Shown here piece by piece: positions 3,856-61,858 of a stretch of 64,000 nt of DNA. The notes below the pieces were generated by a model. It was not told the DNA's origin, did no database searches, and saw only the letters and a program-made list of their open reading frames with translations. The position numbers and the translations under genes were made by a program. The DNA is from a virus: positions 133,463 through 197,462 of the IMG/VR virus record IMGVR_UViG_3300033555_000001; one strand, written 5' to 3'. Positions within the stretch are counted from its first letter, which is position 1; every line of letters starts with the position of its first letter.

Positions 3856-4103
3856 TAGACCACCATAGCGATACCAGCTCGCGCAGATTGAAAGGTAACT
3901 ACGGCAGTTGTATTATTGACGTACGAAATACCAAATGGAATAACCCTTGAAAGATTACCATCAACCGTAATGTAGACGTCAATAATTGGGTAATCATACA
4001 GCCCGTGATTAATTGTCCATACTGTCGCAGGAACTGCTTGCGTGTGTTGATAGCAAGTAGCAACGCGGCTTTGTAGAATCTGCCCAGTTGATCCTGTACT
4101 CAT
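3855..4103 (-). CDS. small virion protein, single W-x-I-x-H module
   Basis: RVATCYQHTQ...WTINHGLYDYPIIDVY; clear paralogue of 5707..5952. Confidence 0.75.
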   Translation of the reverse strand: MSTGSTGQILQSRVATCYQHTQAVPATVWTINHGLYDYPIIDVYITVDGNLSRVIPFGISYVNNTTAVVTFQSARAGIAMVV

Positions 4104-4115
4104 TTTTAGTGCTCC

Positions 4116-4211
4116 TTAGATTAGACGAGCGTAACCAGCCGTAGAGGAACTAAACGTGGCTGTCATTTGATTATTACTATCAACACGATTAGCATTACTG
4201 TAAAACTTCAC
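4116..4211 (-). pseudogene. 31-codon internally deleted remnant of the 5961..6563 gene
   Basis: GTG start, MKFYSNAN-RVDSNNQMTATFSSSTAGYARLI*. It matches the first 8 and last ~23 residues of the 200-aa protein (MKFYGNAN...HNSNNQVTLTFSTAVSGYARLI). Confidence 0.8.
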
Positions 4212-4358
4212 GGTAATCCGTTATTGATTGGCACTGTGTGAAATTCATCAGATCTATTTACGATTATTTGCAATTATTTGCGGCATATACGAAGAAAGCG
4301 GCACTGGGCCGCTTTCTAATTACTTCTGAGTATTACTTAGACTGCAGCAAGACCCATG
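4187..4358. repeat. direct repeat copy 1 (partner 6539..6700)
   Basis: Near-identical ~165-bp block holding the last codons of the fibre gene (MGLAAV*), a terminator hairpin, the TAAATA motif and the start of the next gene. Confidence 0.95.
4293..4317 (-). terminator. intrinsic terminator-like hairpin
   Basis: AGAAAGCGGC-loop-GCCGCTTTCT, then TCG on the minus strand, downstream of 4373..5707. Confidence 0.7.
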
Positions 4359-4372
4359 CTCCTATATTGTTA

Positions 4373-5707
4373 TTATCCTAAGTTACTAAACAGCTGCAGT
4401 TGTCCTGCTTTTGTTGTGACAACGTTAGCTTTAGTGGTCCAAGTTACTCCATCAGGCGAACTCTGCAGCGCGAACTCTTTTGCGTGATAACCGCTGTCGG
4501 CGTTGAAGGCTTCCATTCTGATTGACCTTACGGTTGCAGCACTAGCAAACTCAAGTTCCCAAAAAGTTGGGATTGTCGCGTTTGGCCCGTATGGGTCGTT
4601 TTGCCAGTAAGTAATTGTATTGTTATCATTAGCGTTTGACGCCGGATATTGAGGAGGGGTTGTATTTGCAGAAGCGGTACCCACGATTCGCGCACCCGTA
4701 CCATCAGTTGACTCGTAGAACGAGAACTCGCGAATGATTTGGAGGTACGTGCCAAAATTGGCTTCCCAACTAGGTTGCGTTGCTAATAGTCTCCAGCGAG
4801 ATGCGCCACTAACCACTAGAGGGCCGTTAGTGTATCCGCCTGCTCCAATTGGAAAAAAGCCCTCAGGATAACTTCCAGCAAATCCATTTGTTGAGGCAAA
4901 CGACGAGGTTGGGTCAGCTACTAGTTTAAAACCATTACCAATGGGGAGTTGATAATCATTTGTTACGGCCCAAAGATTACCAAGAGAATCTTTTTGATAC
5001 GCAACTCCGGCGAGCGGACCGTCATACTTCATGCCATTGTGCAGCGTGGTCAAATACGAACCATTACTTTGTATACATCCACCTGCTGGCTGGGTACCCT
5101 CAGACCATGTATAAAGCCCACAAGGCGCATATGAGCCCGCACCAGGCGGCACGCTAAAGTTAATGCTTCCAGTGCCACCAGGACTGCTAATTTCAGCAAT
5201 AATCTGATTTGCAAATGGCGCGTAATTTCGATAGGACTGAGTGTACTTATTGCTTATTGCCAAACCACGCTCGTTGAGCAGCATATATTCTGGAATGTCA
5301 TTTTGATTAGCGTAAACATTACCGTTGTATCTACCGTAAGTTTCACCGGTAACAGGGTCAACAAACAGGGACTCAGTGAATTCAGCGCTAATCTGCTGTC
5401 GTGCTGATTGCACCTGATTTAAATCATGTTCGTGCTCGGACAACAGCACATAGTAATCTGTAGTTGGCTCAACAACATCGTAGCCGACAATCCTGGCCTC
5501 ACCAAACAGCGGGCTGGCAAAAAGAATAGTAGTTGTGTTTTGGTCTGCCGAAGTTTGAACCGCTAGCGGGGTAATGGGCTTTAACACGCCGTTAAGTGTT
5601 GCCAACACTGTTACAATTACAGGCCTGCCAAAGTTATGATTAATCACCCACGATTTAGAGGGCGGTCCTTGCACAAATGTATTGATAGGTAAGCCGGTTT
5701 TTGACAT
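4373..5707 (-). CDS. fibre/receptor-binding-like protein with an N-terminal HNL module and a C-terminal discoidin (F5/8 type C)-like domain
   Basis: N-terminal SWVINHNFGRPVIV. C-terminal ASNANDNNTITYWQ...WELEF...VRSIRM...FALQSSPDGVTWT is typical of F5/8-like carbohydrate-binding sandwiches. Confidence 0.7.
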   Translation of the reverse strand: MSKTGLPINTFVQGPPSKSWVINHNFGRPVIVTVLATLNGVLKPITPLAVQTSADQNTTTILFASPLFGEARIVGYDVVEPTTDYYVLLSEHEHDLNQVQSARQQISAEFTESLFVDPVTGETYGRYNGNVYANQNDIPEYMLLNERGLAISNKYTQSYRNYAPFANQIIAEISSPGGTGSINFSVPPGAGSYAPCGLYTWSEGTQPAGGCIQSNGSYLTTLHNGMKYDGPLAGVAYQKDSLGNLWAVTNDYQLPIGNGFKLVADPTSSFASTNGFAGSYPEGFFPIGAGGYTNGPLVVSGASRWRLLATQPSWEANFGTYLQIIREFSFYESTDGTGARIVGTASANTTPPQYPASNANDNNTITYWQNDPYGPNATIPTFWELEFASAATVRSIRMEAFNADSGYHAKEFALQSSPDGVTWTTKANVVTTKAGQLQLFSNLG

Positions 5708-5952
5708 TAGATCACCAGTGCCACGCCTGAGCGTGCCTCTTGAAAAGTTACGTTAGCCACAGTATCACTTACGTGGGATATTGATGCAGGAACAATTTTA
5801 GTCAGTGTTCCGGCAATATCAGTATAAACGTCAATGATTGGGAAATCATACAGCCGATGCTCAATTACCCAGGTTGTTGCTGCCGTAGTCTGTGTGTGTT
5901 GATACAGCGTGGCCACTCTTGGTGTAAGCTGGCCAGGTTTGTATGTTTTCAT
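5707..5952 (-). CDS. small virion protein, single W-x-I-x-H module
   Basis: RVATLYQHTQ...WVIEHRLYDFPIIDVY; paralogue of 3855..4103. Confidence 0.75.
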   Translation of the reverse strand: MKTYKPGQLTPRVATLYQHTQTTAATTWVIEHRLYDFPIIDVYTDIAGTLTKIVPASISHVSDTVANVTFQEARSGVALVI

Positions 5953-5960
5953 CTCGACCT

Positions 5961-6563
5961 TTAGATCAAGCGCGCGTAACCAGAAACTGCCGTGCTGAAA
6001 GTAAGTGTTACTTGATTATTGCTGTTGTGTTCTACAGTAAGCGGCTGCACTTCGTTGGTGCCGACAAATGCGCGTACGATTGGCTGATAGCCCAAGTTGT
6101 GCAAGATGACCCACGATGTAGCTGGTGCTGATTGGTAAAATGTAAACGCGTATGTTGGTCTGCTTGCACCATCTGCATGGCCAGTAAGAATAACAGCACG
6201 ACCAATTGCCAGCGCAGCAAGAGATACTTTTACTGAGTTTGGTGACAGTACTTCAATTTCGTCAGGAATAACAACGCGTGATAGCCCGTCGAATACTTGA
6301 ATTTGTACCGAGGTAGTATTTAAGTTGTGAGCAATAACCCATTCACCTGCAGCGACCGATTGGTTGTGTGTAAAAGAAGTAATTTCGCGGGTCATTGGTA
6401 CCCATACTGGCAAATTATCAGTAAGACTCAGGCAAATATAAACAATTTTGTTTACAAAGGCGATTTGACCAACCTTTGGTGATATTGGAAATGCTGTCTC
6501 AATTGGTAAAACTGCGTTTTGGAGTTCGTTCTGTTGTAGATTAGCGTTGCCGTAAAACTTCAT
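5961..6563 (-). CDS. virion protein with two HNL modules
   Basis: EWVIAHNLNTTSVQIQV and SWVILHNLGYQPIVRAF. AAGGA SD and TAAATA upstream. Confidence 0.75.
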   Translation of the reverse strand: MKFYGNANLQQNELQNAVLPIETAFPISPKVGQIAFVNKIVYICLSLTDNLPVWVPMTREITSFTHNQSVAAGEWVIAHNLNTTSVQIQVFDGLSRVVIPDEIEVLSPNSVKVSLAALAIGRAVILTGHADGASRPTYAFTFYQSAPATSWVILHNLGYQPIVRAFVGTNEVQPLTVEHNSNNQVTLTFSTAVSGYARLI

Positions 6564-6700
6564 GGTAATCCTTTATTAATTAGTAATGCGTGAAATTCAT
6601 CAGATCTATTTATGATTATTCGAGGCATATACAAAGAAAGCGGCACGGGGCCGCTTTCTAATTACTTCTGAGCATTACTTAGACTGCAGCAAGACCCATG
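6539..6700. repeat. direct repeat copy 2 (partner 4187..4358)
   Basis: Same block as copy 1, here in its native context at the end of the 676-aa fibre gene. Confidence 0.95.
6635..6659 (-). terminator. intrinsic terminator-like hairpin after the fibre gene
   Basis: AGAAAGCGGC-loop-GCCGCTTTCT, then TTG on the minus strand. Confidence 0.75.
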
Positions 6701-12334: not shown

Positions 12335-15300
12335 TTACAGAACGATGAGTTTCAACTCTGTCTGCGCTATTAAACTCAACCTGAATAATCTTGAACTACC
12401 CCGTTCTACCACGGTAGCAAGCTCAGGTGCAGGATCCTCTGGACGCCACACGTAAAATACCGGTGTGGTTGATGGCTCCATTGAAAAAGAGAGTTCTATT
12501 ACTCGCGCACCAGGTGCTGGTATTACAAAAGGCGTTTCAAATTCGCTGTACAGCGTTCCGGCCGGCGGCAAGCCCGCAGCAGGTAGCGGTGGCATTTCAG
12601 CAGAGTAAATTATTGCCGTGCTCTCGGCCTGGCCGTCCATTGGTCCAGCATCAAGGCCATATTGATCTAAACCGTACGCAGTGTCCAGGGCAAATACTGA
12701 CAGCGCTTCAGTTATGGCCGTTGAAGCCGTAACACCAGAATTTTCCTGCACTTCAAAACCAGCGCCAATTGCCGGAACACCAAAATTAGGAGTGATGTCG
12801 CCTGATGCTACAGCTGCGTTAAATGCTGCAATAAAATCGCCGAATGTCGTATCATCAAGCGCGTTGTTAATGAGGTACCCAGAAATAAGAGCAATAAGAT
12901 CGTTTAATCTGCTAGACTCGACTGGGTCAAGTTCGGTGCGCGCAGAAAGAGCCTTGGCCTCTAAAAAATAATCAGTAAGCGGCAAGCCCGTATCATAGGC
13001 ACCGTCTGCAACTTCTGCGTCGTACGGCGTGTTATCATACCCTGGTAAAAATCCAATAAATGGGCCGTCACTCACCGTTACATCGAGCGGCATATCATAG
13101 CTTGACTTTATTAGCAGCTCATTGAGCTCCGCAATCTGTACACCAGTAACCTCGCTAAAGAGCGCATCAGATTCTCCGCCATCACCCTTTAGTAAAAATG
13201 CAATACCCTCTTGCATGTTTACGATAACATGCTCGTTCATACCAGAGCCAAATGTTACCAGTGTGGATTCAGCGTTGAGCGGCAAATACTTTGTGTGAAA
13301 GTCCAGGTCCCAATCAAATATTACAGGATCAGTAACCAAAGATCCAATTGTGCGTACTGTTCCTATGAGCTCACCAGTCACTGCTGCCCTGATCACTGCG
13401 TGCGTCGCCGGATCACTGAACTCAGCAATGGATAGCGCACTATCTCTAAACTCGGTAGATGCCGGTATCCACCCCTGCAACACCGCCGTTTCAGGTGAGG
13501 TGTTAAAGAGGGGTACGCCAGATCGCGCAGTGTGATCTACAAACCTGACATCAATAGTCTGCGGTGCCAGGGGCGCCAGCACTTCAGCGTGTGCCGCGTC
13601 TTTTGCTTTAATTGAGATTGAAATAGCATCAGTGGTGGTGCGCTCAAGGAGCACAAAATCCGCTGCAGTTGGGCTTCTGCCTGCAGTTGTTTTAATAATT
13701 GCAAGGTCGTGGCCCAGTGCCAATCGGTGTTCATCACCTGTAATCTGCAAAATAAAAGAGCTGCCAGCTACCGCAGTTGGTACTTCTAACAGCACATAAT
13801 CGTCACTCAGCGAATTGGTTCCTCGAGCAACAAGGGCGCCATTACGGTACATGTTCCAGGCGCCATCAGCCAAAGATTTTATTACGTAAGTTAAATCAGG
13901 GGCATCTTGCCGCAACCTTTTAAGAGACACAAGTCCTGCAGGTAGTTGCCACTCGCCATCGCCAGGTACTTTTTGATTACTAATAAACAGTTCAGCGGTT
14001 GGAGCGGTAATTTTAAAACCAATTTTCCCGTTCCAGTACCACTCGCCCACCGTTGCGGCAGGCTGCCACCCCGATACTGAACCATGAACTAAGTATGATG
14101 GCCGAGAATTAAGTGTTTCAAACGCAATACTGTCTGATTGTTTTAAGCCGGTGCGACCTGGCCTGATTGTAAAGTGCAGCCCATGCTCGCGGTCTCGATA
14201 GCTAAAGCCAGCCTCTAATTGAACCAACCTAGGTGTGCTAAAAACAGGCGAACCGTTTAACGCGCCAGCAGTATAAAAACCCTGCAGCTCGTACGCAGTG
14301 TTACTTACCCATGTAAGTACCCACTTTGCCGGGGTGCTGTTGTGATATGCCGCCCCGTGCATTACCAAGCGTGGGATTCGTGCTGATCCAAGTGCTGCCG
14401 CTCCAATTTGCTCGGGTGGCGAATTGCGCACGGTCCATGAAATAACATCACCGCCAAAAACACTCTCTTCAATAAATGCGGCAGAGGTGTCTTGGTACCG
14501 CGATGAGTTCAGCCGAGCAGCAATAAATGGTTTTGAGGCTTCAACAAGTTTAAATGACAGGCCAATCCCCGTGTTTGAATACGCATTACCAACTTGAATA
14601 TTGTCAATCAACACCCACAGGAGCGTCTCAGTATCAAAGTACTCTAGCGCAAACGAACTGCTGTACCACAATAATAAATCTGCTGTAGTATCAGGATCAT
14701 TTCCAGAATGAACGCCCTCAGCCGTGGTGGTATTCTCTGAATCATACACTGGCACGGCAGTTGAATCTGTGCCTGCTAAATTTACGCGATTTTCCGGTGA
14801 TGTGCTCTGTAGTGGCAGTGGTCGATCAAAATCAGGCAGCGCTCTCAGTCTCCACTGGCGGCCGCTAACAACGTTTCCAGCAAGTACCAGGTTAAATGAT
14901 TTAAGATCATAAGACGCAAAGCGCGTGTCAAATTTAAAATCTAATGTTTTAAAGTAGTCTTCACCCGCTGAATTAGTAGCGTTGTAAACTAATTCACTTG
15001 CGTCGTAGCTGTCAAAATCATATCCATAAAATAAATCAAGATCATCAGCAACTGGTTCGTTGTTTTGAATCTCAATATCAAAGCGATCACCCGCTGTGAA
15101 CTGGTAATCAGTTCCTGCTCTTATAGTAAATGCAAGTACACCATCGTTAAACAGCGTATTAACTGTAGCCACACCCGCATATTCAAGATCACTGGTGGCG
15201 CTAATAATAAATTGCGTGCTGCTGATAGCTGTCAGTACAACTGAACCAGTTTTAAATCCAGTGTCAAGAACCGTAATTTTATTTTTAGTACCACTGGTAT

Positions 15301-41853: not shown

Positions 41854-43125
41854 TTACGAGAACGAAACGTTTGTGATCCTGATCCGTGCGTAGTAATCCG
41901 CGCTGTTACCAAGCGATGTACCAGCGTTGGTGAACGTAGCTTTTCCGTACCGGGTCATGAGGCTCACTGCTGGCATGAACGTGTTAGCGTCCATAACAAC
42001 ACCGGTGCTCATCAGTGGAACGTATGGGCAGTAAAAGTAACCTGTATCCAACTCTGACGAACCGCCTTTGTAGCCGATCAAGATGTCTTCGCCAGTTGTA
42101 CCAGTAGCCGAACCAGCGCCGCCAGTCAATGTCCAAGCATCATTCAGACCCCAGTTGTACGAGTAAACGCGCATCTGGCCATTCAACATACCAACAAGCT
42201 TGTTACCGGTAGGATCTTGGAACTGGCCAGAGACCGCTGGTGCAAACACGGACTTTGAAGCAGATTGCAAGATCGAAGTAACCAAGTGCGAACCAACCAA
42301 CCAGTTACCAGGTCCACGACGCGTTTTAGCGCCGATTTCGTTTGCAAGCTTGTTAACCAAAATACCAAGTTCAGCGTAACGATCACCAATGAAGTTCGGC
42401 GAGAAACCAGCTGGTGGAGTTGCGAAGTCGAATGTTCCAACAGTTGCGGCCAGGGCCAACAGGTCTGTCAAGATTTCATTGTCGATTTCGTGAGCGATCT
42501 GAGCTGACAAGGCTGCTGTCAATTCATTTTCCAGATCAAGACCGTGCTGCGAAGTCATGTCCTGAGCTGCTTCCATTGTCCAACGAGCCTGCAACTTACG
42601 GGAACCTGCAGTGATTGTTTGCTTCAAGACGCTCAAACGCAACGCACGACCGCCGTAGCCTTCGTAATCGCTTGTATTCGCGCCAACACCAGTACTTGTG
42701 TTAGCTGTCAGTGCTGGCGGATAACCTGCCGTACCAACGTTTGCTGTCGAATAGAAACGCTTCATCTTCGAGTTGTTTGCAAAAACTTCATCACCAGCAG
42801 CGATGTCGTTTGAAGGATCGCCGTTTGTGTCGACGGACTCAGCAAACGCAAAGCGCAAGCTGTATACCAAGCCAACTGGACCGCTCATTGGCTGTACGCC
42901 AACTAGATCGGTTGCAATAGTACCTGGCAAAATACGACGAATCATCGGGATAACGATTTTTTGGAAGCCGTCAACAGCGTTAGCCGTTGTTGCAGTTGCG
43001 CTTGCGGTTTCCATCATGTACTGCTTCTGATTCTCCAGAAGAGTAGACACGATTTGTTTCTTCGAACCAGTAAGGCCTTCTAGCAAGGCGGCTTTAGTTT
43101 CGATCCAGTTTTCCGTTAGTAACAT
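41854..43125 (-). CDS. gp23: major capsid protein (T4 gp23-like)
   Basis: LLENQ, IPMIRR..P..IA.DLVGVQPMSGPVGLVY.LR, SRKLQARWTMEAAQD...HGLD.E.EL, YCPYVPL and MTRYG. Confidence 0.97.
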   Translation of the reverse strand: MLLTENWIETKAALLEGLTGSKKQIVSTLLENQKQYMMETASATATTANAVDGFQKIVIPMIRRILPGTIATDLVGVQPMSGPVGLVYSLRFAFAESVDTNGDPSNDIAAGDEVFANNSKMKRFYSTANVGTAGYPPALTANTSTGVGANTSDYEGYGGRALRLSVLKQTITAGSRKLQARWTMEAAQDMTSQHGLDLENELTAALSAQIAHEIDNEILTDLLALAATVGTFDFATPPAGFSPNFIGDRYAELGILVNKLANEIGAKTRRGPGNWLVGSHLVTSILQSASKSVFAPAVSGQFQDPTGNKLVGMLNGQMRVYSYNWGLNDAWTLTGGAGSATGTTGEDILIGYKGGSSELDTGYFYCPYVPLMSTGVVMDANTFMPAVSLMTRYGKATFTNAGTSLGNSADYYARIRITNVSFS

Positions 43126-45579: not shown

Positions 45580-45692
45580 TTTGTAACTCCCAGTTTTAAC
45601 TTAGCTTCCAGACCTGCAATAATCTTTATTACGGTCACGGCTTTAACTTTATTCTTGTATTTAGCGTACAGCTCTTTTTTAGGGCGCCGGCC

Positions 45693-45720
45693 AAATAATA
45701 CCTGCCCGTAGGCAGGTGTT
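45693..45720 (-). terminator. hairpin with a C(UACG)G tetraloop after the portal gene
   Basis: The minus strand reads ACCTGCC-TACG-GGCAGGT-ATTATTT. Confidence 0.6.
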
Positions 45721-45741
45721 CTACGTACTATAAGAAATAAA

Positions 45742-47391
45742 TTACTCTGCGGGTGGCTCTTCTGCAGGGGTTAATGTCTTAAATGGCGCGTCTTCAAAGT
45801 CCGTGTCTAATAACCCAGCTGCAGGATCCATATCCATTTCATCAGTTCCACCACCACCTTGTGCAACGTCAGTTCCTACAATCACTGGCGCACGCTGAGA
45901 ATAAACAGCATCGTCGTACAGCTGCTGCATGATAGGCACACCTGCTGTATCAACCATGTTCTTTTCTTCTTTGAGCTGAACTTCATTCATCTGAATTTCA
46001 TCGTCAGACAGACCAAGATAGCGCTTAAGAATAAACCGGCGTGACAACCATTTAACCTCTTGAATATTGGTAAACGAGCTAATAAGATCGGCGTCAAGAG
46101 CTGCCTGGCGGTAGAGTGCAAAGTTCGCTGGGTCTGGTAGTTTAATGCTGAATACTTCATCATCAACGTGTAGCCCACATACCTTTAGGTAAATCTTAAA
46201 TTCGGCGTCGTAGATCTCATTGATCCTGTCCTGCAGCCTCGAAATAAAGTTCGCAAATCTGAGCTCTTCAATGTACGCAATACCTACTTTGCCGTCATTA
46301 GACTGCGGATCGGTGCCACCACTGCCGCCCATGTACGAGGTAGGAATACGCAGGCCGCGGAAGATCTTATCCTGGAATTGCTTGAGTAAATTAGTACCAA
46401 AGTCCTCGCTGCCACCGGGCAGTGTTTCAACCCGTGAACCTTTACCGGCCGCTGTTACTGGGAAAAAGTAATCTTCTTGGAGTGAAGACGGATCGTACTG
46501 CCCGTCAACCGTGTCCTTCATGCCATTTGTCTGTACACCCGGTGCGCGCTTTTGACGAATTTCATTTTTGATAGATTCAAGATAACGCTTTACCGCTTGC
46601 TGGTTCATGTTACCGGTGTCAATGTAGAACACGCGTCGCTCTGGGGCTCGCACAATTCGGTAAATGATTACTGCGTCTTCCAGCATTGACAGCTGGCGGT
46701 AAACGCGGAAAATTGGTTTTAGTACCGAAGCGCCAAAGGGTGCAGAGTCCCCCATGTCGTCTGACATAGAGAAATGAATCATTGCCGATGCTGGAACAAT
46801 ATCAAACTGCTCACCGCGATTTACACCAAAGCCAGTTGTACTTGCAATGCCAGGGCGGCGCAAATGATAATTTATTCGCGATCCCATTTCGTCAATTTCA
46901 ATTCCAGCTACTAGCGATGGATCCACATACGCCCATTTTCTGGTGTCACTTGCCTTGCGGAAGAAACAATCACCGTACTTGATCATGCATCTTGATGTAC
47001 TAAACACACGCTTCTTGAGGTCCTGCAGCTGTGCCCACTGGCGTAGAGCCGCGCGAACTGTTACCGTTGTAGTATCTGAAACGTCTTGGTTATCTTCTTT
47101 TTGCCACTGAATTAAAAATGGCAACTCAGTCTTGTCATCTTTACCGGACATTTCTTCTGCAATAATATCCAGTGAGCGAGAAATATCAATGTCTGCGTCC
47201 ATTGCATCGTACTGCTTGTACGTTGCAGTACGGCCGCCAGGGCCGCGCATGATTTGCGAATACCAGGTAACGGCGGCCAACGAGCTGGCGTCAGTGCTGC
47301 GCGGATCGTATGCATCCGTTGCCAGCGTGGTGTACATTTGTTTTCGCGTCTTTGGAGATACTATCTTCCACATCGCGGAGAGTTGTGCCAT
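45742..47391 (-). CDS. gp20: portal protein (T4 gp20-like)
   Basis: QLSMLEDAVIIYRIVRAPERRVFYIDTGNM, EDYFFP...G..VETLPGG, LRIPTSY and EELRFANFISRLQ. Confidence 0.97.
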   Translation of the reverse strand: MAQLSAMWKIVSPKTRKQMYTTLATDAYDPRSTDASSLAAVTWYSQIMRGPGGRTATYKQYDAMDADIDISRSLDIIAEEMSGKDDKTELPFLIQWQKEDNQDVSDTTTVTVRAALRQWAQLQDLKKRVFSTSRCMIKYGDCFFRKASDTRKWAYVDPSLVAGIEIDEMGSRINYHLRRPGIASTTGFGVNRGEQFDIVPASAMIHFSMSDDMGDSAPFGASVLKPIFRVYRQLSMLEDAVIIYRIVRAPERRVFYIDTGNMNQQAVKRYLESIKNEIRQKRAPGVQTNGMKDTVDGQYDPSSLQEDYFFPVTAAGKGSRVETLPGGSEDFGTNLLKQFQDKIFRGLRIPTSYMGGSGGTDPQSNDGKVGIAYIEELRFANFISRLQDRINEIYDAEFKIYLKVCGLHVDDEVFSIKLPDPANFALYRQAALDADLISSFTNIQEVKWLSRRFILKRYLGLSDDEIQMNEVQLKEEKNMVDTAGVPIMQQLYDDAVYSQRAPVIVGTDVAQGGGGTDEMDMDPAAGLLDTDFEDAPFKTLTPAEEPPAE

Positions 47392-53680: not shown

Positions 53681-53953
53681 CTATTTAACTGGGCTCTGCT
53701 CACCCCAAATTTCCATTTCTTCTGGTTCACCCGTAACGATTAATGTTTTACCGCTTGCTTTTATAATACCATATTCACCATCGTCCCAAATTTCTTGAGG
53801 ATCGGGAATGATTGTAACTTTACGTGTAATATAGCAAAATCCATCTCGGGCTGTTGGAAATTTATTTGAAAAGTACCGCTCATTGTCTCGCTGAGTAATA
53901 TAAATTTTAGCAGAGGCAGTGCGCGGTTTTTCTAAGATTTCTGATAATTTCAC
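53681..53953 (-). CDS. hypothetical protein, candidate internal head protein
   Basis: N-terminus MKLSEILE-K. Confidence 0.6.
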   Translation of the reverse strand: MKLSEILEKPRTASAKIYITQRDNERYFSNKFPTARDGFCYITRKVTIIPDPQEIWDDGEYGIIKASGKTLIVTGEPEEMEIWGEQSPVK

Positions 53954-54414
53954 GGCGACTTCTTCAATGAAGACTCAAAGGTAGAGGCTTCTTCAATTTC
54001 AAAGTTAAACGAATTATCAGTTACTCGCTTGACGACGTAATCACCATCATTTAGCTGCGCGGTCATACTGTTTTCAAGTTGAACTTCAATTGTATCTCCG
54101 GAGTACTTAAACGCTGAAATTTTAAGTGGATCCATGTAGACGGTAAAACCCTCGGCATCAGCCGTTTGATTAGGGCGAATTGGAGCCAGTGTTTTAGAGA
54201 GTTCAACCGCGCTAAACGTGCCAAACGGTTTTGATGTTGTACCAACCACGCTCAAGACCTCGTACGTTACTGGCTTTGTATCCAGTGGGCGAACCATGTA
54301 AGTAAGGGTTGATACGTACTTTGAAACTTCGGATTCGTTATTTGACCACAGGTCTTCTACGGCAACTTTTTCAATTGCCGCTTCAAAGATAGGTTTTAGA
54401 TCTGATAATTTCAT
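53950..54414 (-). CDS. hypothetical protein, candidate internal head protein
   Basis: N-terminus MKLSDLKPIFE-A. TAAATA and an AGGAG SD upstream. Confidence 0.7.
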   Translation of the reverse strand: MKLSDLKPIFEAAIEKVAVEDLWSNNESEVSKYVSTLTYMVRPLDTKPVTYEVLSVVGTTSKPFGTFSAVELSKTLAPIRPNQTADAEGFTVYMDPLKISAFKYSGDTIEVQLENSMTAQLNDGDYVVKRVTDNSFNFEIEEASTFESSLKKSP

Positions 54415-54421
54415 GACTGCT

Positions 54422-54454
54422 CCTGTAAGATCAGATATTTAGCCCTCTATGATC
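54422..54454. repeat. 33-bp direct repeat copy 1 (partner 54819..54851)
   Basis: CCTGTAAGATCAG(A/G)TATTTAGCCCTCTATGATC, one mismatch between copies. Confidence 0.9.
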
Positions 54455-54472
54455 TTGATAAGTCTACGGTGT

Positions 54473-54811
54473 TTAATAAAGTGGTTTTTTCTTAGTGAAA
54501 ATTACATCGAACGAATTATCATTCTGTTCAAAACGAAACATCGCCCAACCAGCAGCTTTTTCTTTTGCTATTGCTAAATTAAATGTCGCTTTATAAACAT
54601 CAGGCGTGGTATTTTTTGGCATCTTAATAAGTTTTGATTTGACGTCGCAGCCAGCGTTGTATAACTTCATCAGCTTGGTGGCGTCGGCACGCGACATCCA
54701 TATATTGGCTGCAGAACCTTTGTCTTCAAGAAACTCATAGAAGCCGTCAAGATCGGTAAATGCAAATCGCAATTTGGCTTCGGTAATTTGTAATAGCTGC
54801 TTCAATATCAT
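54473..54811 (-). CDS. hypothetical protein between the direct repeats, candidate internal head protein
   Basis: N-terminus MILKQLLQITE-A. TAAATA upstream. Confidence 0.7.
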   Translation of the reverse strand: MILKQLLQITEAKLRFAFTDLDGFYEFLEDKGSAANIWMSRADATKLMKLYNAGCDVKSKLIKMPKNTTPDVYKATFNLAIAKEKAAGWAMFRFEQNDNSFDVIFTKKKPLY

Positions 54812-54818
54812 AATTCCC

Positions 54819-54851
54819 CCTGTAAGATCAGGTATTTAGCCCTCTATGATC
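54819..54851. repeat. 33-bp direct repeat copy 2
   Basis: Spans the gp46 C-terminal codons (IIEG*) and the TAAATA motif. Confidence 0.9.
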
Positions 54852-56575
54852 GTACTAAACCCGTGATGCTTTTGTATTGTCATTGACCGATCTAATCGAC
54901 CTTGGATATTTTGATGATGACTGATAACATAGATACCAAGATCCTCGTCACGGCTCTTTTCTTTTAGAATCCTGACAATTGCGTCAATTCCCGCGCTGTC
55001 AAGTGCGCCATCCAGCTCGTCAATCAGGAGCAGATTACATTTGGCGTGCAAGTGGTGCAACACGTCTCTGAACGCCAGGGCCATGCCGGTATTGACGCGC
55101 TTCTTTTCGCCGGCTGACAAGTTACCAAAGTCAAGGTCTCGCCCAAACTCAGACACAGTACAGCTCAGGTCAGCGTCAAATTTCACAATGTGCGGCAGCC
55201 CAAGCTTAGCCGTGTAGTTGTTGATTCGACTGTTCAAGAACGGAATGGTTCGGCTAATAATTCGCCGGCGCAGAAATGAATCTTTAGAGGTAAGCAGCTT
55301 TAGCAGAAACGCCTGATGTTCTAATCGTTTTTTCAGAGCATCAACTTTTTCAGGTTCTGCTGCTTGTGCAGTTTCAGCGCTTAACTGCTTAAACGCTTCA
55401 GTGTGCGGATTAACTGCGGTGGCTAAATCACCAAGCTTTACGGTCATGACTGATGAATTTTCACGGGCGGCCAAGAGCTCTTTCAAGTTACTGTGCTTGA
55501 TAGCGCCTTCAACTTCAGCGAGCCGCTGTGCATGGGACTGCACCTGTAGAGCCAGGTCGCCTACCACTTCCTCAACCTCCAGCAGTCTGGCGCCTTTAGC
55601 TTCAATGGCCGCATCCAGTTCTGTGAGCTTTTTTGGAGCATCAGCAAATTGCTGCAAACAGTACGGGCAATTTGCTTTAGCCAAGTGCGTCTGCTCGCTG
55701 AGTAGCCTTTCTACTTCAGCGGTGAGTAACTGCCGATCTTTTTTGGCTGGGGCCAGCTTAGAGTTTAGTTGTGCACCCTCTTGCGCCAGAGCAGTGCGCT
55801 CGTCATGCAGTAACTGCTCAAGCTCAAAGTCAACTGTGCCAAGCACCGCCAGGGTTTTTTCAATACTGGCTATTTCTTGCTGGCGCGTAACTTCCCAGCG
55901 ATCTACTCTACTTGAGGCATCTGTAATCTGCTTTTGATGCAGTTCTGCTGCTGTTAATTGCTGCTTGAGTACCGCCTCTTGTACTTTTAAATCGCTCTCT
56001 GTTTCGCGAATCAGCTCTTTGAGCACTTTTGCTTTTTCAGACAGGAGTGTAATGTTAAACAGTTCTTCAATTTGATTGCGCTGCGCTGCGGTTGGCAGCT
56101 GCAAAAACGCCACTGAGTTACCGGAGAAAATAATAGTCTTGGTAAAGAGATCATAAGAAATTCCAATGATCTCCTCGATCATTTTATCGCACTCAATTAC
56201 GCTTTTACCTGGTGTAATGTCATCGCCGTTCTTCCACAGGTTAATTGTAAAGTGCTCACCACGTGTTCGTAAAATTTCATACTCATCACCGCCCCGCTCA
56301 AATGACAGGCGTACTTCCATGAGTGTGTTCTTTGATGCGTTTGTGCTGTTAATCAACCGCTGTAGACTGATATTGTCAAACGGCTTGTTGTACAGCGCGT
56401 AACACAGCGCGTTAATGATTGTAGTTTTGCCAGCGCCATTTGAGCCGCCAACGTCTAGATTTTGGCCATCAATAGTTACAGTGCCAGGCTCGGCCAGATT
56501 TATTACGGTATCATTTTGGCCGAACGATAGAAAGTTTCTGAGCGTCAAGTCCCTGAAATACAGTGTACTGCTCAT
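54836..56575 (-). CDS. gp46: SbcC/Rad50-like recombination ATPase (T4 gp46-like)
   Basis: NFLSFG, Walker A GSNGAGKTT, CPYC zinc hook, LSAGEKKR signature, Walker B LLLIDE and VISH. Confidence 0.95.
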   Translation of the reverse strand: MSSTLYFRDLTLRNFLSFGQNDTVINLAEPGTVTIDGQNLDVGGSNGAGKTTIINALCYALYNKPFDNISLQRLINSTNASKNTLMEVRLSFERGGDEYEILRTRGEHFTINLWKNGDDITPGKSVIECDKMIEEIIGISYDLFTKTIIFSGNSVAFLQLPTAAQRNQIEELFNITLLSEKAKVLKELIRETESDLKVQEAVLKQQLTAAELHQKQITDASSRVDRWEVTRQQEIASIEKTLAVLGTVDFELEQLLHDERTALAQEGAQLNSKLAPAKKDRQLLTAEVERLLSEQTHLAKANCPYCLQQFADAPKKLTELDAAIEAKGARLLEVEEVVGDLALQVQSHAQRLAEVEGAIKHSNLKELLAARENSSVMTVKLGDLATAVNPHTEAFKQLSAETAQAAEPEKVDALKKRLEHQAFLLKLLTSKDSFLRRRIISRTIPFLNSRINNYTAKLGLPHIVKFDADLSCTVSEFGRDLDFGNLSAGEKKRVNTGMALAFRDVLHHLHAKCNLLLIDELDGALDSAGIDAIVRILKEKSRDEDLGIYVISHHQNIQGRLDRSMTIQKHHGFSTIIEG

Positions 56576-58223: not shown

Positions 58224-58508
58224 ATGAAATTTCTGAAAATTGCGTTCCACGCCGATACCGAGGAATCACTGGACTCGATTCTTGAGTACATGAAAACGAC
58301 GCTAGACAGAAATGAAATAGTTACAGAAGATGGCTTTACGTACATTGAGATCCTTACCGACGCCGAGTTGGTGGATGAGCTGATTTGCCTTGGCGGTTGC
58401 CTGCTGGAGCTTGACAATGATGGTTATGAGGACGCGTTTTTTGTCGAGATCGTGGAGCTTGATGTTGCTCCAGTGGACTGCGACGCACCACCGCAGTACT
58501 TGCAGTGA
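58224..58508 (+). CDS. acidic hypothetical protein
   Basis: TATAAT and GGAG upstream. Very D/E-rich 94 aa ending in APPQYLQ. Confidence 0.7.
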   Translation: MKFLKIAFHADTEESLDSILEYMKTTLDRNEIVTEDGFTYIEILTDAELVDELICLGGCLLELDNDGYEDAFFVEIVELDVAPVDCDAPPQYLQ

Positions 58509-58513
58509 GCGAT
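58485..58513. repeat. repeat A copy 1 (partner 59119..59147)
   Basis: GCACCACCGCAGTACTTGCA(G/A)TGAGCGAT, 29 bp, one mismatch. Confidence 0.9.
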
Positions 58514-58993
58514 CTTCTCAATCCTAAGGCTATTTGTAAGCTAACGGAAGAGCAGTGGGGAGGTTCATACCCTATTAGTTGGGACCCTATCAAAAAAGGC
58601 ATTAGTGTTGACCGAGCCGTGAAAAATACATTTGGGGGAGAAGGTGGGAGGTTTGACCCCTTTGATATGAATTTTTTTGTTGGCAACATCAGCCATCATG
58701 AAATAAAAACAACAACCACGAACTGGATTAAGCTTTCACCAAAAGAAAAAGAGCTTGCGGATAGCCTTTTACAGCAGAAATTAGATATGCTGTACTGGAT
58801 TTATTTCCAACATCAAGCCCGAGACGACTTTCAATTTAAGTGCATAGTTAGATGGAGTAAATTAACGCAAAACGATTTAATTTTCACATCACAGTACGAC
58901 ATGTGCAATGTTGAGCGAGAAGGTGTTTGGACAGTAGAACCAGGTTATTGTTTCTCTTTATCCCGAGCCCTGTCAACAGCTGAACCTAATTAA
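58505..58993 (+). CDS. hypothetical protein, possible PD-(D/E)xK nuclease
   Basis: FDPFDMNF...HEIKTT; AT-rich; GTGA overlap with the upstream stop. Confidence 0.5.
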   Translation: MSDLLNPKAICKLTEEQWGGSYPISWDPIKKGISVDRAVKNTFGGEGGRFDPFDMNFFVGNISHHEIKTTTTNWIKLSPKEKELADSLLQQKLDMLYWIYFQHQARDDFQFKCIVRWSKLTQNDLIFTSQYDMCNVEREGVWTVEPGYCFSLSRALSTAEPN

Positions 58994-59010
58994 TAATCTT
59001 AAAAAAATTG

Positions 59011-59098
59011 TCGCTTGTTACAATATCTCATCTCCTGTCACCTACGTCGGGCGACAAAATAGGAGAAAATTAAATGACTCAAGAAAATCAAACTGCAA
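59011..59098. repeat. repeat B copy 1 (partner 59789..59876)
   Basis: 88-bp block containing TGTTACAAT, an anti-SD hairpin, the AGGAGA SD and the first codons MTQ(E/D)NQT. Confidence 0.95.
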
Positions 59099-59142
59099 CT
59101 GCGCTGGTGGGCGGTGGTGCACCACCGCAGTACTTGCAATGA
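59074..59142 (+). pseudogene. 22-codon chimeric junction ORF
   Basis: MTQENQTATALVGGGAPPQYLQ*: the start of 59852..60337 fused in frame to the end of 58224..58508. Its TGA overlaps the ATG at 59139. Confidence 0.8.
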
Positions 59143-59147
59143 GCGAT
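59119..59147. repeat. repeat A copy 2
   Basis: Partner of 58485..58513. Confidence 0.9.
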
Positions 59148-59762
59148 ATTAATCTGATAAGAGCTTTGACAGGCAATAACCGAATTGAGCGAATTAGGCA
59201 GGCTAGGCTTGATTCAAGTTTCAATACAGTTATTGCAATATTAAAAGAATATTGCAGTGCAATACCAGCCTTTTCAGCGGACACAATTGGTCAAGAATTA
59301 TTCGATGAGGTTAACAATATTGTCATCATTGCGAATTTACAGCCAGACCAAAAAAGATCAAAGGCTAAAAAAGAAGCTGATTTTAAGAGGGGGATGTTTT
59401 GCGAGTGCATGGTACGAGACGTGTTGCGTTTAGCACTTGCAGAAATTGGATGGAAATGCGAGTGGCCCAACGATTCTGGGCCACGTGACCTAATTCTGAC
59501 TAGCCCCGCAAAAATTAGATTTTTAGTAGATGTGAAAACAAAGGCTGTTTTACCTGGCAAATCTGGAACTGTTACGTGTTCAGAGTCTGAGGCAAGAGCG
59601 CTGGTTAACGGCATGTACAAAAATGAAAAAATAGATGAAATACTATTAGCAATATTTAACATAAGCACAGCTGGAATTTATACATTTGCGGACGTTCGCC
59701 GCGCAAAAACAGAAGCATGGAGTCTGAGTGAGGATGGCTGCAGCTGGTATTTTGAATTTTAA
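59139..59762 (+). CDS. putative PD-(D/E)xK (restriction-endonuclease-like) nuclease
   Basis: KRGMFCECMVRDVL...RDLIL...FLVDVKTK; AT-rich. Confidence 0.55.
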   Translation: MSDINLIRALTGNNRIERIRQARLDSSFNTVIAILKEYCSAIPAFSADTIGQELFDEVNNIVIIANLQPDQKRSKAKKEADFKRGMFCECMVRDVLRLALAEIGWKCEWPNDSGPRDLILTSPAKIRFLVDVKTKAVLPGKSGTVTCSESEARALVNGMYKNEKIDEILLAIFNISTAGIYTFADVRRAKTEAWSLSEDGCSWYFEF

Positions 59763-59788
59763 CCCAAACATCGCATAACCGGCAAATT

Positions 59789-59876
59789 TCGCTTGTTACA
59801 ATATCTCATCTCCTGTCACCTGTGTTGGGCGACTGAATAGGAGAAAATTAAATGACTCAAGATAATCAAACTACAA
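59789..59876. repeat. repeat B copy 2
   Basis: Partner of 59011..59098; native leader of the MazG-like gene. Confidence 0.95.
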
Positions 59877-60337
59877 TTATGCCAGCAGCCAATTTAGAAG
59901 CACCTCAAATCAATACTGACTGGGTTGCTGACATTGCTGACATGCATACGAAATTCGGCGTTAACACAGTTATCAGAAAACTTAATAAAGCAGACTTGGC
60001 CAAGTTCTTAAAATTTCGCGTTGATTTCTTGCAAGAAGAACTAGACGAGATGATTGCAGCCAGCGAAGACCCTGACTACAAAAAGCCAGACGCTCGTGGC
60101 GACGACATTGTCGATGCGCTGATTGACATTTGCGTTGTTGCAATTGGCACCATGAACGCGTTTGATGTTGATGCGCATACAGCATGGGCCAGAGTCCACA
60201 GTAAAAACATGGAAAAGAACGCTGGCGTCAATCCCAATAGGCCCAACGAATTAGGACTGCCGGATCTGATCAAACCAGCTGGTTGGACTAGCCCTACACA
60301 TGCGGATAATGTTGGCTTGTTAAGCAAGCTGTTTTAA
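59852..60337 (+). CDS. MazG-like/PRA-PH-like nucleoside triphosphate pyrophosphohydrolase
   Basis: MHTKFG...FLQEELDEM...IVDALIDICVVAIG...VH.KNMEK...DLIKPAGW. Confidence 0.85.
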   Translation: MTQDNQTTIMPAANLEAPQINTDWVADIADMHTKFGVNTVIRKLNKADLAKFLKFRVDFLQEELDEMIAASEDPDYKKPDARGDDIVDALIDICVVAIGTMNAFDVDAHTAWARVHSKNMEKNAGVNPNRPNELGLPDLIKPAGWTSPTHADNVGLLSKLF

Positions 60338-60988: not shown

Positions 60989-61858
60989 ATGCGCCGCTTC
61001 GACATTTTAAATATTACGCCAAGTACAAATCCAACTGTCCCGTCTACTATTGAGATTGGGCTAGATTTTTCTGGTGTATTTCATGGCCGTGAATGGTCCA
61101 GCGAAACTGGACTGCGCTCGCCAGCCTATACATACACCCCTGGCACAGCGCCAAGCGGCACAGTTCAAGTAGTTGCCACTACATTTGAGGTGCAGGGAAA
61201 TTCAAAGTACCGCGGCAAATATACCGTTTACACACAACCTGAAGGTGGGTTGCCCTCTAGCCAGTACGATCAAAACAGTGGTCGCACGTTTATTAGAATT
61301 AATGAAGTAATACCATCTAACGGAACTCCAGAGGAGCTTAGCACTGGATTTATTACCCGTGTAAGTACGTATTTGTTTATTGTTGCGGGCGAAGCTGATC
61401 TTATTGTACTTGAACAGAGTCATAATGATACGCGGCCAATTGGGTTACTTGGTCAGCTGTCAAGTGGTTGGGGAGAAACTCTGTTTCAGAACCAGCTGCG
61501 ACAGGCACAAAGTTTTGCAGATACTACCGCACCGCTGAATCCATTTCAGGGACAACAGTGGTTTGACACCATGAACTCAGTGCTCATGATTAGAAACAAT
61601 AACGCGTGGGGCGTTGTTAACGCAGAGTATTTTGGTGGCGCACCATACCGCCATGAGCAAACTGTTCCAAGTGCTCTGTGGGAAATTGCGCACAACTTAA
61701 ATGCTGCTGCGCCGTTTGTTCTGTCAACTGACTTTTTTGTTGAGGTAGCCGGAATCATCCGGGCAATTTTGCCATCAGAAATTAATTTTATTGATGCTAA
61801 TAATATCCAAGCGGTGTTCACCGAACCATTTGCCGGAGTAGCTTTACTTCGTCGATAA
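60989..61858 (+). CDS. virion protein with a C-terminal HNL module
   Basis: GETLFQNQLRQAQSFA...P..P.QGQQWFD motif and WEIAHNLN. TAAATA upstream. Confidence 0.7.
   Translation: MRRFDILNITPSTNPTVPSTIEIGLDFSGVFHGREWSSETGLRSPAYTYTPGTAPSGTVQVVATTFEVQGNSKYRGKYTVYTQPEGGLPSSQYDQNSGRTFIRINEVIPSNGTPEELSTGFITRVSTYLFIVAGEADLIVLEQSHNDTRPIGLLGQLSSGWGETLFQNQLRQAQSFADTTAPLNPFQGQQWFDTMNSVLMIRNNNAWGVVNAEYFGGAPYRHEQTVPSALWEIAHNLNAAAPFVLSTDFFVEVAGIIRAILPSEINFIDANNIQAVFTEPFAGVALLRR

Follow-up and report, generated by a model that had tools for sequence, protein, structure and literature searches.

Why does a phage carry two nuclease-like genes one behind the other, each preceded by the same gene end and followed by the same promoter and leader? 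The locus that raises this question lies in a 64,000-nt stretch of viral DNA, here called the window, which corresponds to positions 133463-197462 (G000:C1) of a 310,728-nt virus record with a CheckV completeness of 87%. The 311-kb source record is a jumbo phage. The gene order is U, X, B, mini-ORF, Y, B′, and a MazG-like gene, and the parts are located in the window as follows:

58224-58508, plus strand: U, a 94-aa acidic ORF whose stop codon overlaps the GTG start of X.
58485-58513, plus strand: repeat A, the end of U plus the first codons of the slot gene, with an exact 20-nt match at 58485-58504.
58505-58993, plus strand: X, a predicted PD-(D/E)XK nuclease of 162 aa (G32, D54, E66-x-K68, E81).
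59006-59098, plus strand: repeat B, a TACAAT promoter-like element, a leader hairpin predicted over the Shine-Dalgarno (SD) sequence, and the first codons of the MazG-like gene.
59074-59142, plus strand: the mini-ORF, a chimeric 22-aa frame (MTQENQTATALVGGGAPPQYLQ, then a stop) with a MazG-like N terminus and a U-like C terminus.
59119-59147, plus strand: repeat A′.
59139-59762, plus strand: Y, a likely PD-(D/E)XK nuclease of 207 aa (G84..E88, D117, D131-x-K133, S147..E150).
59784-59876, plus strand: repeat B′, which serves as promoter and leader for the intact MazG-like gene.
59852-60337, plus strand: the MazG-like nucleotide pyrophosphohydrolase gene (PF01503, phrog_671).
Locus neighbors, minus strand: SbcC/SbcD-like and endonuclease VII genes.

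An earlier note on this DNA had described repeats A and B at both places, and both pairs are real. Repeats B and B′ are 93 nt long, 90% identical, and 778 nt apart, with an identical core of 33 nt (59011-59043 = 59789-59821). Repeats A and A′ are identical over exactly 20 nt (58485-58504 = 59119-59138) at a distance of 634 nt, and their likeness extends into the first codons of the slot genes (GTGAGCGAT / ATGAGCGAT). By a rough estimate, the chance expectation within 9 kb is 8e-5 for a matching 20-mer and 2e-12 for a matching 33-mer.

The chimeric mini-ORF of 22 codons and its coupling to Y, also described earlier, hold up equally well. Nucleotides 1-25 of the mini-ORF match the start of the MazG-like gene at 23 of 25 positions, its end matches the end of U, and its stop codon and the start codon of Y (59139) share the sequence ATGA. 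The best breakpoint falls after nucleotides 25-27, which places the junction near 59098-59100; in the middle 20 nt, 11 positions match U and 7 match MazG. At the best in-register junction, any surviving microhomology is shorter than 3 nt; a GCACC match is present one codon out of register. No SD sequence is evident just before Y. The frame of Y is also open upstream of its ATG (stop-to-stop from 58938), and therefore a second junction frame would have yielded a fusion. Because one frame in three is expected by chance and the Y frame is open upstream, little can be read into the junction being in frame as a sign of design, and a working frame would be likely to arise by chance.

The presence of this arrangement in DNA was assessed with Logan contigs from the only sequencing run that holds it, which is cataloged under ice metagenomes and is the probable source of the record. 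The mini-ORF junction resides inside a single 805-nt contig (59014-59818), and thus the junction exists in DNA. The contigs break at the 33-nt core of B, where a k=31 graph built from the assembly also predicts breaks (giving pieces of 805 and 48,919 nt), and therefore they do not place both copies of B on one molecule. Neither contig branches at A, so that no strain with a U-Y arrangement is evident. The Logan contig on the left, which is 17,070 nt long, stops at about position 41971 of the window, where the assembly has no 31-nt repeat; this is possibly a variant site.

Logan depth is a single figure per contig, and by this measure the Y-module contig has a depth of 15.1, the flanking contigs 23.6 and 24.4, and four short unique control contigs of the phage 24.2, 26.4, 23.2, and 29.6, the last of these being of similar GC content. 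In simulations, a depth of 15.1 was reached in 0 of 5000 trials at any of three read lengths (sampling SD 1.4-2.5). The difference between 15.1 for the Y contig and 23-30 elsewhere is a hint that about a third of the genomes in the population are without the B-to-B′ (Y) module. A crossover in the 33-nt core creates no new 31-mer. The depth evidence is no more than a hint, as the collapsed 33-nt repeat itself has a depth of 18.5, which is below the two-copy expectation.

The graph break at the B core and the lower depth of the Y contig would also suit an assembly chimera, wherein the chromosome carries only X and Y is located on a separate molecule or in a separate strain. We judge this to be very improbable, given that the junction is inside one contig at a depth of 15 and that neither contig branches at A. 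Moreover, a free circle of 778 nt that does not replicate could not plausibly be maintained at about 0.6 per genome; for circles formed between PeSL repeats, the figure is about 1 in 1e5 virions (PMC2839356). Y is also present in both JGI/IMG and ENA sources, which possibly hold the same reads.

We next consider what X and Y encode. Word-based protein searches with X, Y, and U returned only the proteins of the window itself, and a PDB sequence search with an X profile gave 0 matches, but an exhaustive search recovered 12 matches to X. In an alignment of 14 rows, comprising X, 11 of these 12 matches (P0019 was dropped), and two slot relatives, residues G32, D54, K68, E81, and S129 are invariant. 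The structural model of X (pLDDT 90.6) is predicted to have a restriction-enzyme-like fold of the PD-(D/E)XK superfamily. Its best VIA matches are NhoI, DpnI, SwaI, and Hjc (Z 7.3-7.9), and the top 14 are all restriction-endonuclease-like nucleases, with a maximum Z of 7.9 and none at 8 or above. Foldseek agrees, with no match at E <0.001.

NhoI and DpnI are modification-dependent enzymes. Their rank near the top, together with that of Hjc and with weak NOV_C matches for two slot relatives, could indicate that X and Y are themselves modification-dependent and aimed at co-infecting phages or at host DNA with other marks, or that they are resolvase-like helpers. We give this interpretation very little weight, since restriction enzymes of no relation reach tied Z scores and an endonuclease VII is already among the products of this phage.

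For Y, no homolog was found in word-based protein searches, in viral contigs, or in any of 20 related records. Its single-sequence model has a pLDDT of 37, and its Atlas model matches restriction-enzyme-like clusters at TM 0.52-0.56, which is below the Atlas naming bar. Residues D117, D131, and K133 of Y align with the slot families, and X, Y, and all slot families exhibit the common layout G..E/D, D, (E/D)xK, S..E. From these sequence features, Y is likely a PD-(D/E)XK nuclease. The D..(E/D)xK motifs that the earlier note had pointed out are indeed in both proteins, whereas its description of X and Y as unrelated is too strong: they have no significant similarity (HH probability 0.1%), but they do share the motif layout.

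The window is not the only place where a nuclease gene precedes this MazG-like gene. Searches that started from the MazG-like gene and from the conserved gene spanning 60989-61858 identified 39 distinct loci in the same jumbo-phage group, of which 36 could be counted (three have 151 nt or less upstream and were dropped). One PD-(D/E)XK-type nuclease is located before the MazG-like gene in 23 of the 36 and none in the other 13. The 23 occupants form five clusters, namely the X family with five members and others with 2, 6, 2, and 8. Profile comparisons connect most clusters at probabilities of 65-94% along a chain, leaving one cluster and Y unconnected, and this chain indicates that most clusters are one deeply diverged group. 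These findings bear out the view of one slot with alternative nuclease-like occupants, including the expected relatives with a single occupant (X homologs stand singly in five), but relatives holding only Y, which the earlier note had also proposed to look for, were not found. Two occupants or a duplicated leader were seen in 0 of 36 relatives, and there is no exact leader-duplicating repeat of 16 nt or more.

On a tree of the downstream conserved gene (aligned without L021), the occupant label changes 18 times, compared with a minimum of 6 and a mean of 23 for shuffled labels, and is thus more clustered than shuffled labels; the starred branches force at least four changes for the X family. 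The MazG tree was built by a quick method and has poor resolution. Occupants have been exchanged or lost repeatedly, as the scatter of their families on the tree indicates. The aligned occupants have catalytic motifs that seem intact, and no decayed nuclease remnants were found in the 13 empty slots, where a search gave one weak match (E 0.024).

The upstream neighbor of the slot in relatives is a gene other than U, so that neither an X-only nor a Y-only slot bounded by U was seen. No U homolog was found in word-based protein searches or in viral contigs, and searches of viral contigs with U, SbcD, and Y yielded no loci. No close relative was found among cultured phages by blastn, and the exact 30-nt B pattern gave 0 matches in metagenome contigs. 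PADLOC returned no match for X, Y, or eight slot relatives, and X and Y have no match in Pfam or PHROG, including the PHROG homing-endonuclease families. In the literature searched, from which subscription journals are mostly absent, no paper on the slot, on the pairing of DenB with MazG, or on the leader hairpin was found.

Several other arrangements were observed near the slot. HNH genes upstream of MazG in L092, L105, and L111 were considered as occupants or as signs of a homing hotspot and were rejected, because the family is also present at other distances and, in L092 and L105, follows what we take to be a capsid-like gene; these three loci are counted among the 13 without a PD-(D/E)XK occupant. 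In L003 (4440-5462), a single open frame of 340 aa encodes both the slot nuclease and the MazG-like protein and runs through the leader. In L103, L104, L106, L109, and L040, the empty slot before the MazG-like gene contains, or has close to it, one or two small ORFs that we presume to be acyl-carrier-protein-like.

How, then, could the stack have formed? We consider it most likely a one-off recombinant. Two lineages, U-X-B-MazG and U′-Y-B′-MazG′, would have met in one cell, and an out-of-register join would have linked about nine first codons of one MazG copy to about 14 last codons of the other U copy. The other side would be supplied by ordinary homologous recombination, or else the join would be made as a circle that is then integrated. 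The resulting chimeric ORF would put Y under the MazG promoter and leader and would restore stop-start coupling. Subsequently, a crossover of the 33-nt B cores would remove the 778-nt Y module, and one of the 20-nt A cores would remove the 634-nt X module. Because such crossovers would drop one module or the other, the stack is probably transient. A circle, as proposed in the earlier note, is a possible route but is not needed, since a linear unequal crossover gives the same product; the two routes are indistinguishable because the parental alleles are absent.

The earlier note had generalized from the circle to an integron-like, recombinase-free way of stacking accessory genes at conserved boundaries, citing other loci of this genome as support. 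Consistent with that idea, both boundaries are duplicated, as expected from circle integration; mini-circles formed by PeSLs are known in T4-type phages (PMC2839356); and several other short-range repeat pairs are present in the genome. Against it stand the lack of any stacked slot among the 36 relatives and the nature of A and B, which are ordinary gene boundaries that occur twice only, with no third copy of either in a self-BLAST of the genome. In addition, the circle needs an illegitimate junction, whereas PeSL circles form between two repeats, and the other repeat pairs examined copy one boundary only (a gene end, or a promoter with its ribosome-binding site [RBS]). Given also the equivalent product of a linear crossover, general stacking of this kind seems very improbable to us.

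One such pair (54407/54804) repeats a promoter-and-RBS stretch in front of neighboring small genes, and only one boundary is copied. It belongs to a region of the window (53681-54861, minus strand) with a run of small genes whose products start MKLSE, MKLSD, or MILKQ, two of which are preceded by the same 55-nt promoter-and-RBS stretch. At G000:C1:206409-208527 (L160), two copies of a 63-nt gene 3′ end bracket a homing-endonuclease gene of 475 aa and an ORF of 117 aa; the gene with the duplicated end is presumably tail-sheath-like, and again a single boundary is copied. Paralogous genes of the tail-fiber region at window positions 3973-6700 are surrounded by two further repeat pairs, one of 80 nt and one of about 170 nt. 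An element of 25-31 nt has about seven dispersed copies on both strands of G000:C1 (11602, 53770, 84645, 198853, 236860, 279005, and 307962). A GIY-YIG/NUMOD3 homing-endonuclease gene is located directly after the thymidylate synthase gene (G000:C1:70358-71176; L163:4359-5177).

Repeat B corresponds to the promoter and leader that are conserved before the MazG-like gene. A 5′ anti-SD stretch is predicted to pair with the SD sequence in 30 of 33 leaders (window 59030-59076 and 59808-59854, and 31 related), and matching changes are found on both arms of the hairpin, for example CTCTCC/GGAGAG, TGCTCC/GGAGCA, and CTTCCTC/GAGGAAG. The differences between B and B′ are mainly in the hairpin loops. 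This pairing, with differences confined largely to loops, explains the 90% identity of B between lineages. Rfam gave no real match on B, and no terminator-like site is present there. Based on these predictions, the leader hairpin is a candidate translational control element of the gene that follows, which is a probable dCTPase gene for reasons given below.

The record carries a dCMP-hydroxymethylase-like gene and a T4-type β-glucosyltransferase gene (G000:C1:39404-40429 and 45652-46803; L162:7405-8430 and 13653-14804), with a kinase-like gene between them. The former is a second thymidylate-synthase-like gene whose best PDB matches are CMP/dCMP hydroxymethylases. Among near-complete relatives, the hydroxymethylase is present in four of four and the glucosyltransferase in three of four. 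The DNA of this phage is therefore predicted from its gene content to carry glucosylated hydroxymethylcytosine (hmC). This neighborhood suggests that the MazG-like protein is probably the phage dCTPase and does the job of T4 gp56, although direct comparison with gp56 is not significant (E 0.02 among five targets). Searches for N6/N4, C5, and Dam methylases found none in this genome (record 87% complete), which fits protection by a global base change better than protection by a cognate methylase.

T4 pairs its hmC pathway with DenA and DenB, which cut DNA with unmodified cytosine (PMC2993671; PMC1635256). We consider it about an even chance that X and Y are DenB-like cutters of this kind, by context and analogy rather than by family membership. 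No denA or denB homologs were found in this genome (record 87% complete). X aligns to a DenB profile over the D..ExK..WIS core, and for the X family this alignment over the catalytic core has a probability of 13-18%; overall, the resemblance to DenB is weak, with HH probabilities of 2-18% for the X family and <1% for Y, and a DenB HMM gives E 0.1-0.7 for X and no match for Y. Among 45 distinct loci of the same MazG family outside the clade, a hydroxymethylase or glucosyltransferase gene is present in the fetched stretch in 35, and a nuclease detected by the DenB-seeded profile abuts the MazG-like gene or is located within 1.9 kb of it in 17; note that this profile, iterated from seven seed proteins, may have drifted to generic PD-(D/E)XK proteins. 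In the T4-like hmC phages of L013, L045, L046, L048, L056, and L066, the nuclease detected by this profile comes directly after the MazG-like gene. Further observations count against the DenB-like interpretation. In T4 itself (NC_000866), DenB is not beside gene 56, whereas SegF is. Furthermore, 13 of the 36 relatives are without an occupant, whereas the distribution of denB reportedly tracks that of gene 42 (PMC2993671).

The position of segF introduces the main competing interpretation, under which X and Y would be free-standing homing endonucleases directed at the neighboring dCTPase gene of nuclease-free relatives by intronless homing. The stack would be the same one-off event, and its junction would have arisen as a side effect of repair that had homology on one side only. 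In T4, segF adjoins gene 56 (NC_000866) and targets it (PMC2988022, Table 1). The slot genes are optional, are swapped between lineages, and are always located by the same conserved gene. In 31 related records searched as a whole, a set that leaves out 10 metagenome loci, the X profile has six matches, and all are in the slot before the MazG-like gene. Such a patchy but site-faithful distribution fits homing equally well. Other homing-endonuclease genes are present in the genome, and I-Ssp6803I is among the fold matches of X (Z 5.8, rank 14). However, the best folds for X are restriction enzymes with short sites or with sensitivity to modification, together with Hjc, and no PHROG homing-endonuclease family matches. 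The intact motifs, the lack of remnants in the 13 empty slots, and the DenB-like genes that also adjoin this MazG family in T4-like hmC phages lead us to place the DenB-like interpretation ahead of homing, which we regard as possible but less likely.

Taken as a whole, the locus is best read as two alleles of a swappable one-gene slot, holding DenB-like nucleases by a probable dCTPase, that were joined by a single illegitimate crossover; we hold this complete account to be about as likely to be right as wrong. A broader proposal, which we offer only tentatively, is that the slot holds unannotated, fast-diverging cytosine-restricting nucleases that are swapped under host counter-defense in a clade of hmC jumbo phages. 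This genome would then represent an allele swap in mid-course, wherein the tandem expresses both genes and resolves to either one, with the X-only form already in the population.

The stack itself is probably an ordinary product of recombination. The lasting finding is the swappable nuclease slot by a probable dCTPase gene across a clade of jumbo phages, with families that are unnamed by Pfam, PHROGs, and PADLOC. If the occupants are DenB analogues, they would be a source of enzymes that discriminate cytosine from hmC, and they would provide a host DNA degradation route for hmC phages without denA or denB. DenB triggers the retron Eco2 defense (PMC12916289), which in that case would give a reason for the frequent loss and replacement of occupants. 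If they are instead homing enzymes, they would be a PD-(D/E)XK counterpart of SegF.

Several known systems resemble parts of this locus. No attC-like shared site or cassette array of the integron type was found: A and B differ from each other, each has two copies, and there is no array in the 36 relatives. As in the PeSL cassettes of RB49 and phi1, which their authors liken to integrons, short promoter-bearing repeats flank an ORFan that can be lost or gained by general recombination (PMC2839356). Unlike PeSLs, which are many-copy elements with a promoter and a terminator stem-loop, B is a two-copy gene leader without a terminator-like site whose hairpin pairs with the SD sequence, and the stack needs an illegitimate junction. 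The SegB-driven segmental amplification between short homologies in T6 likewise produces an unstable tandem beside a phage nuclease gene (PMC13096335), but in the present locus each unit carries a different gene, and the module has a reduced depth instead of being amplified.

With SegF, the slot shares an optional nuclease gene that abuts a gene for a dNTP pyrophosphatase and is without an evident SD sequence of its own (PMC2988022; NC_000866). SegF differs in being a GIY-YIG enzyme encoded downstream of gene 56, whereas X and Y are predicted to be of the PD-(D/E)XK type and are encoded upstream, and their homing is putative. Compared with T4 DenB, X and Y are not detectable family members, are located directly before the probable dCTPase gene, and occur as two in tandem; the slot nucleases are also optional, with swaps between members of at least five divergent clusters, and their dC specificity is predicted by analogy. 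Nevertheless, as with DenB and DenA alongside gp56 and gp42 in T4, a small nuclease with a similar D..ExK..WIS core is found in a phage with a hydroxymethylase and a β-glucosyltransferase, and DenB-like genes are located near the same MazG family in T4-like relatives.
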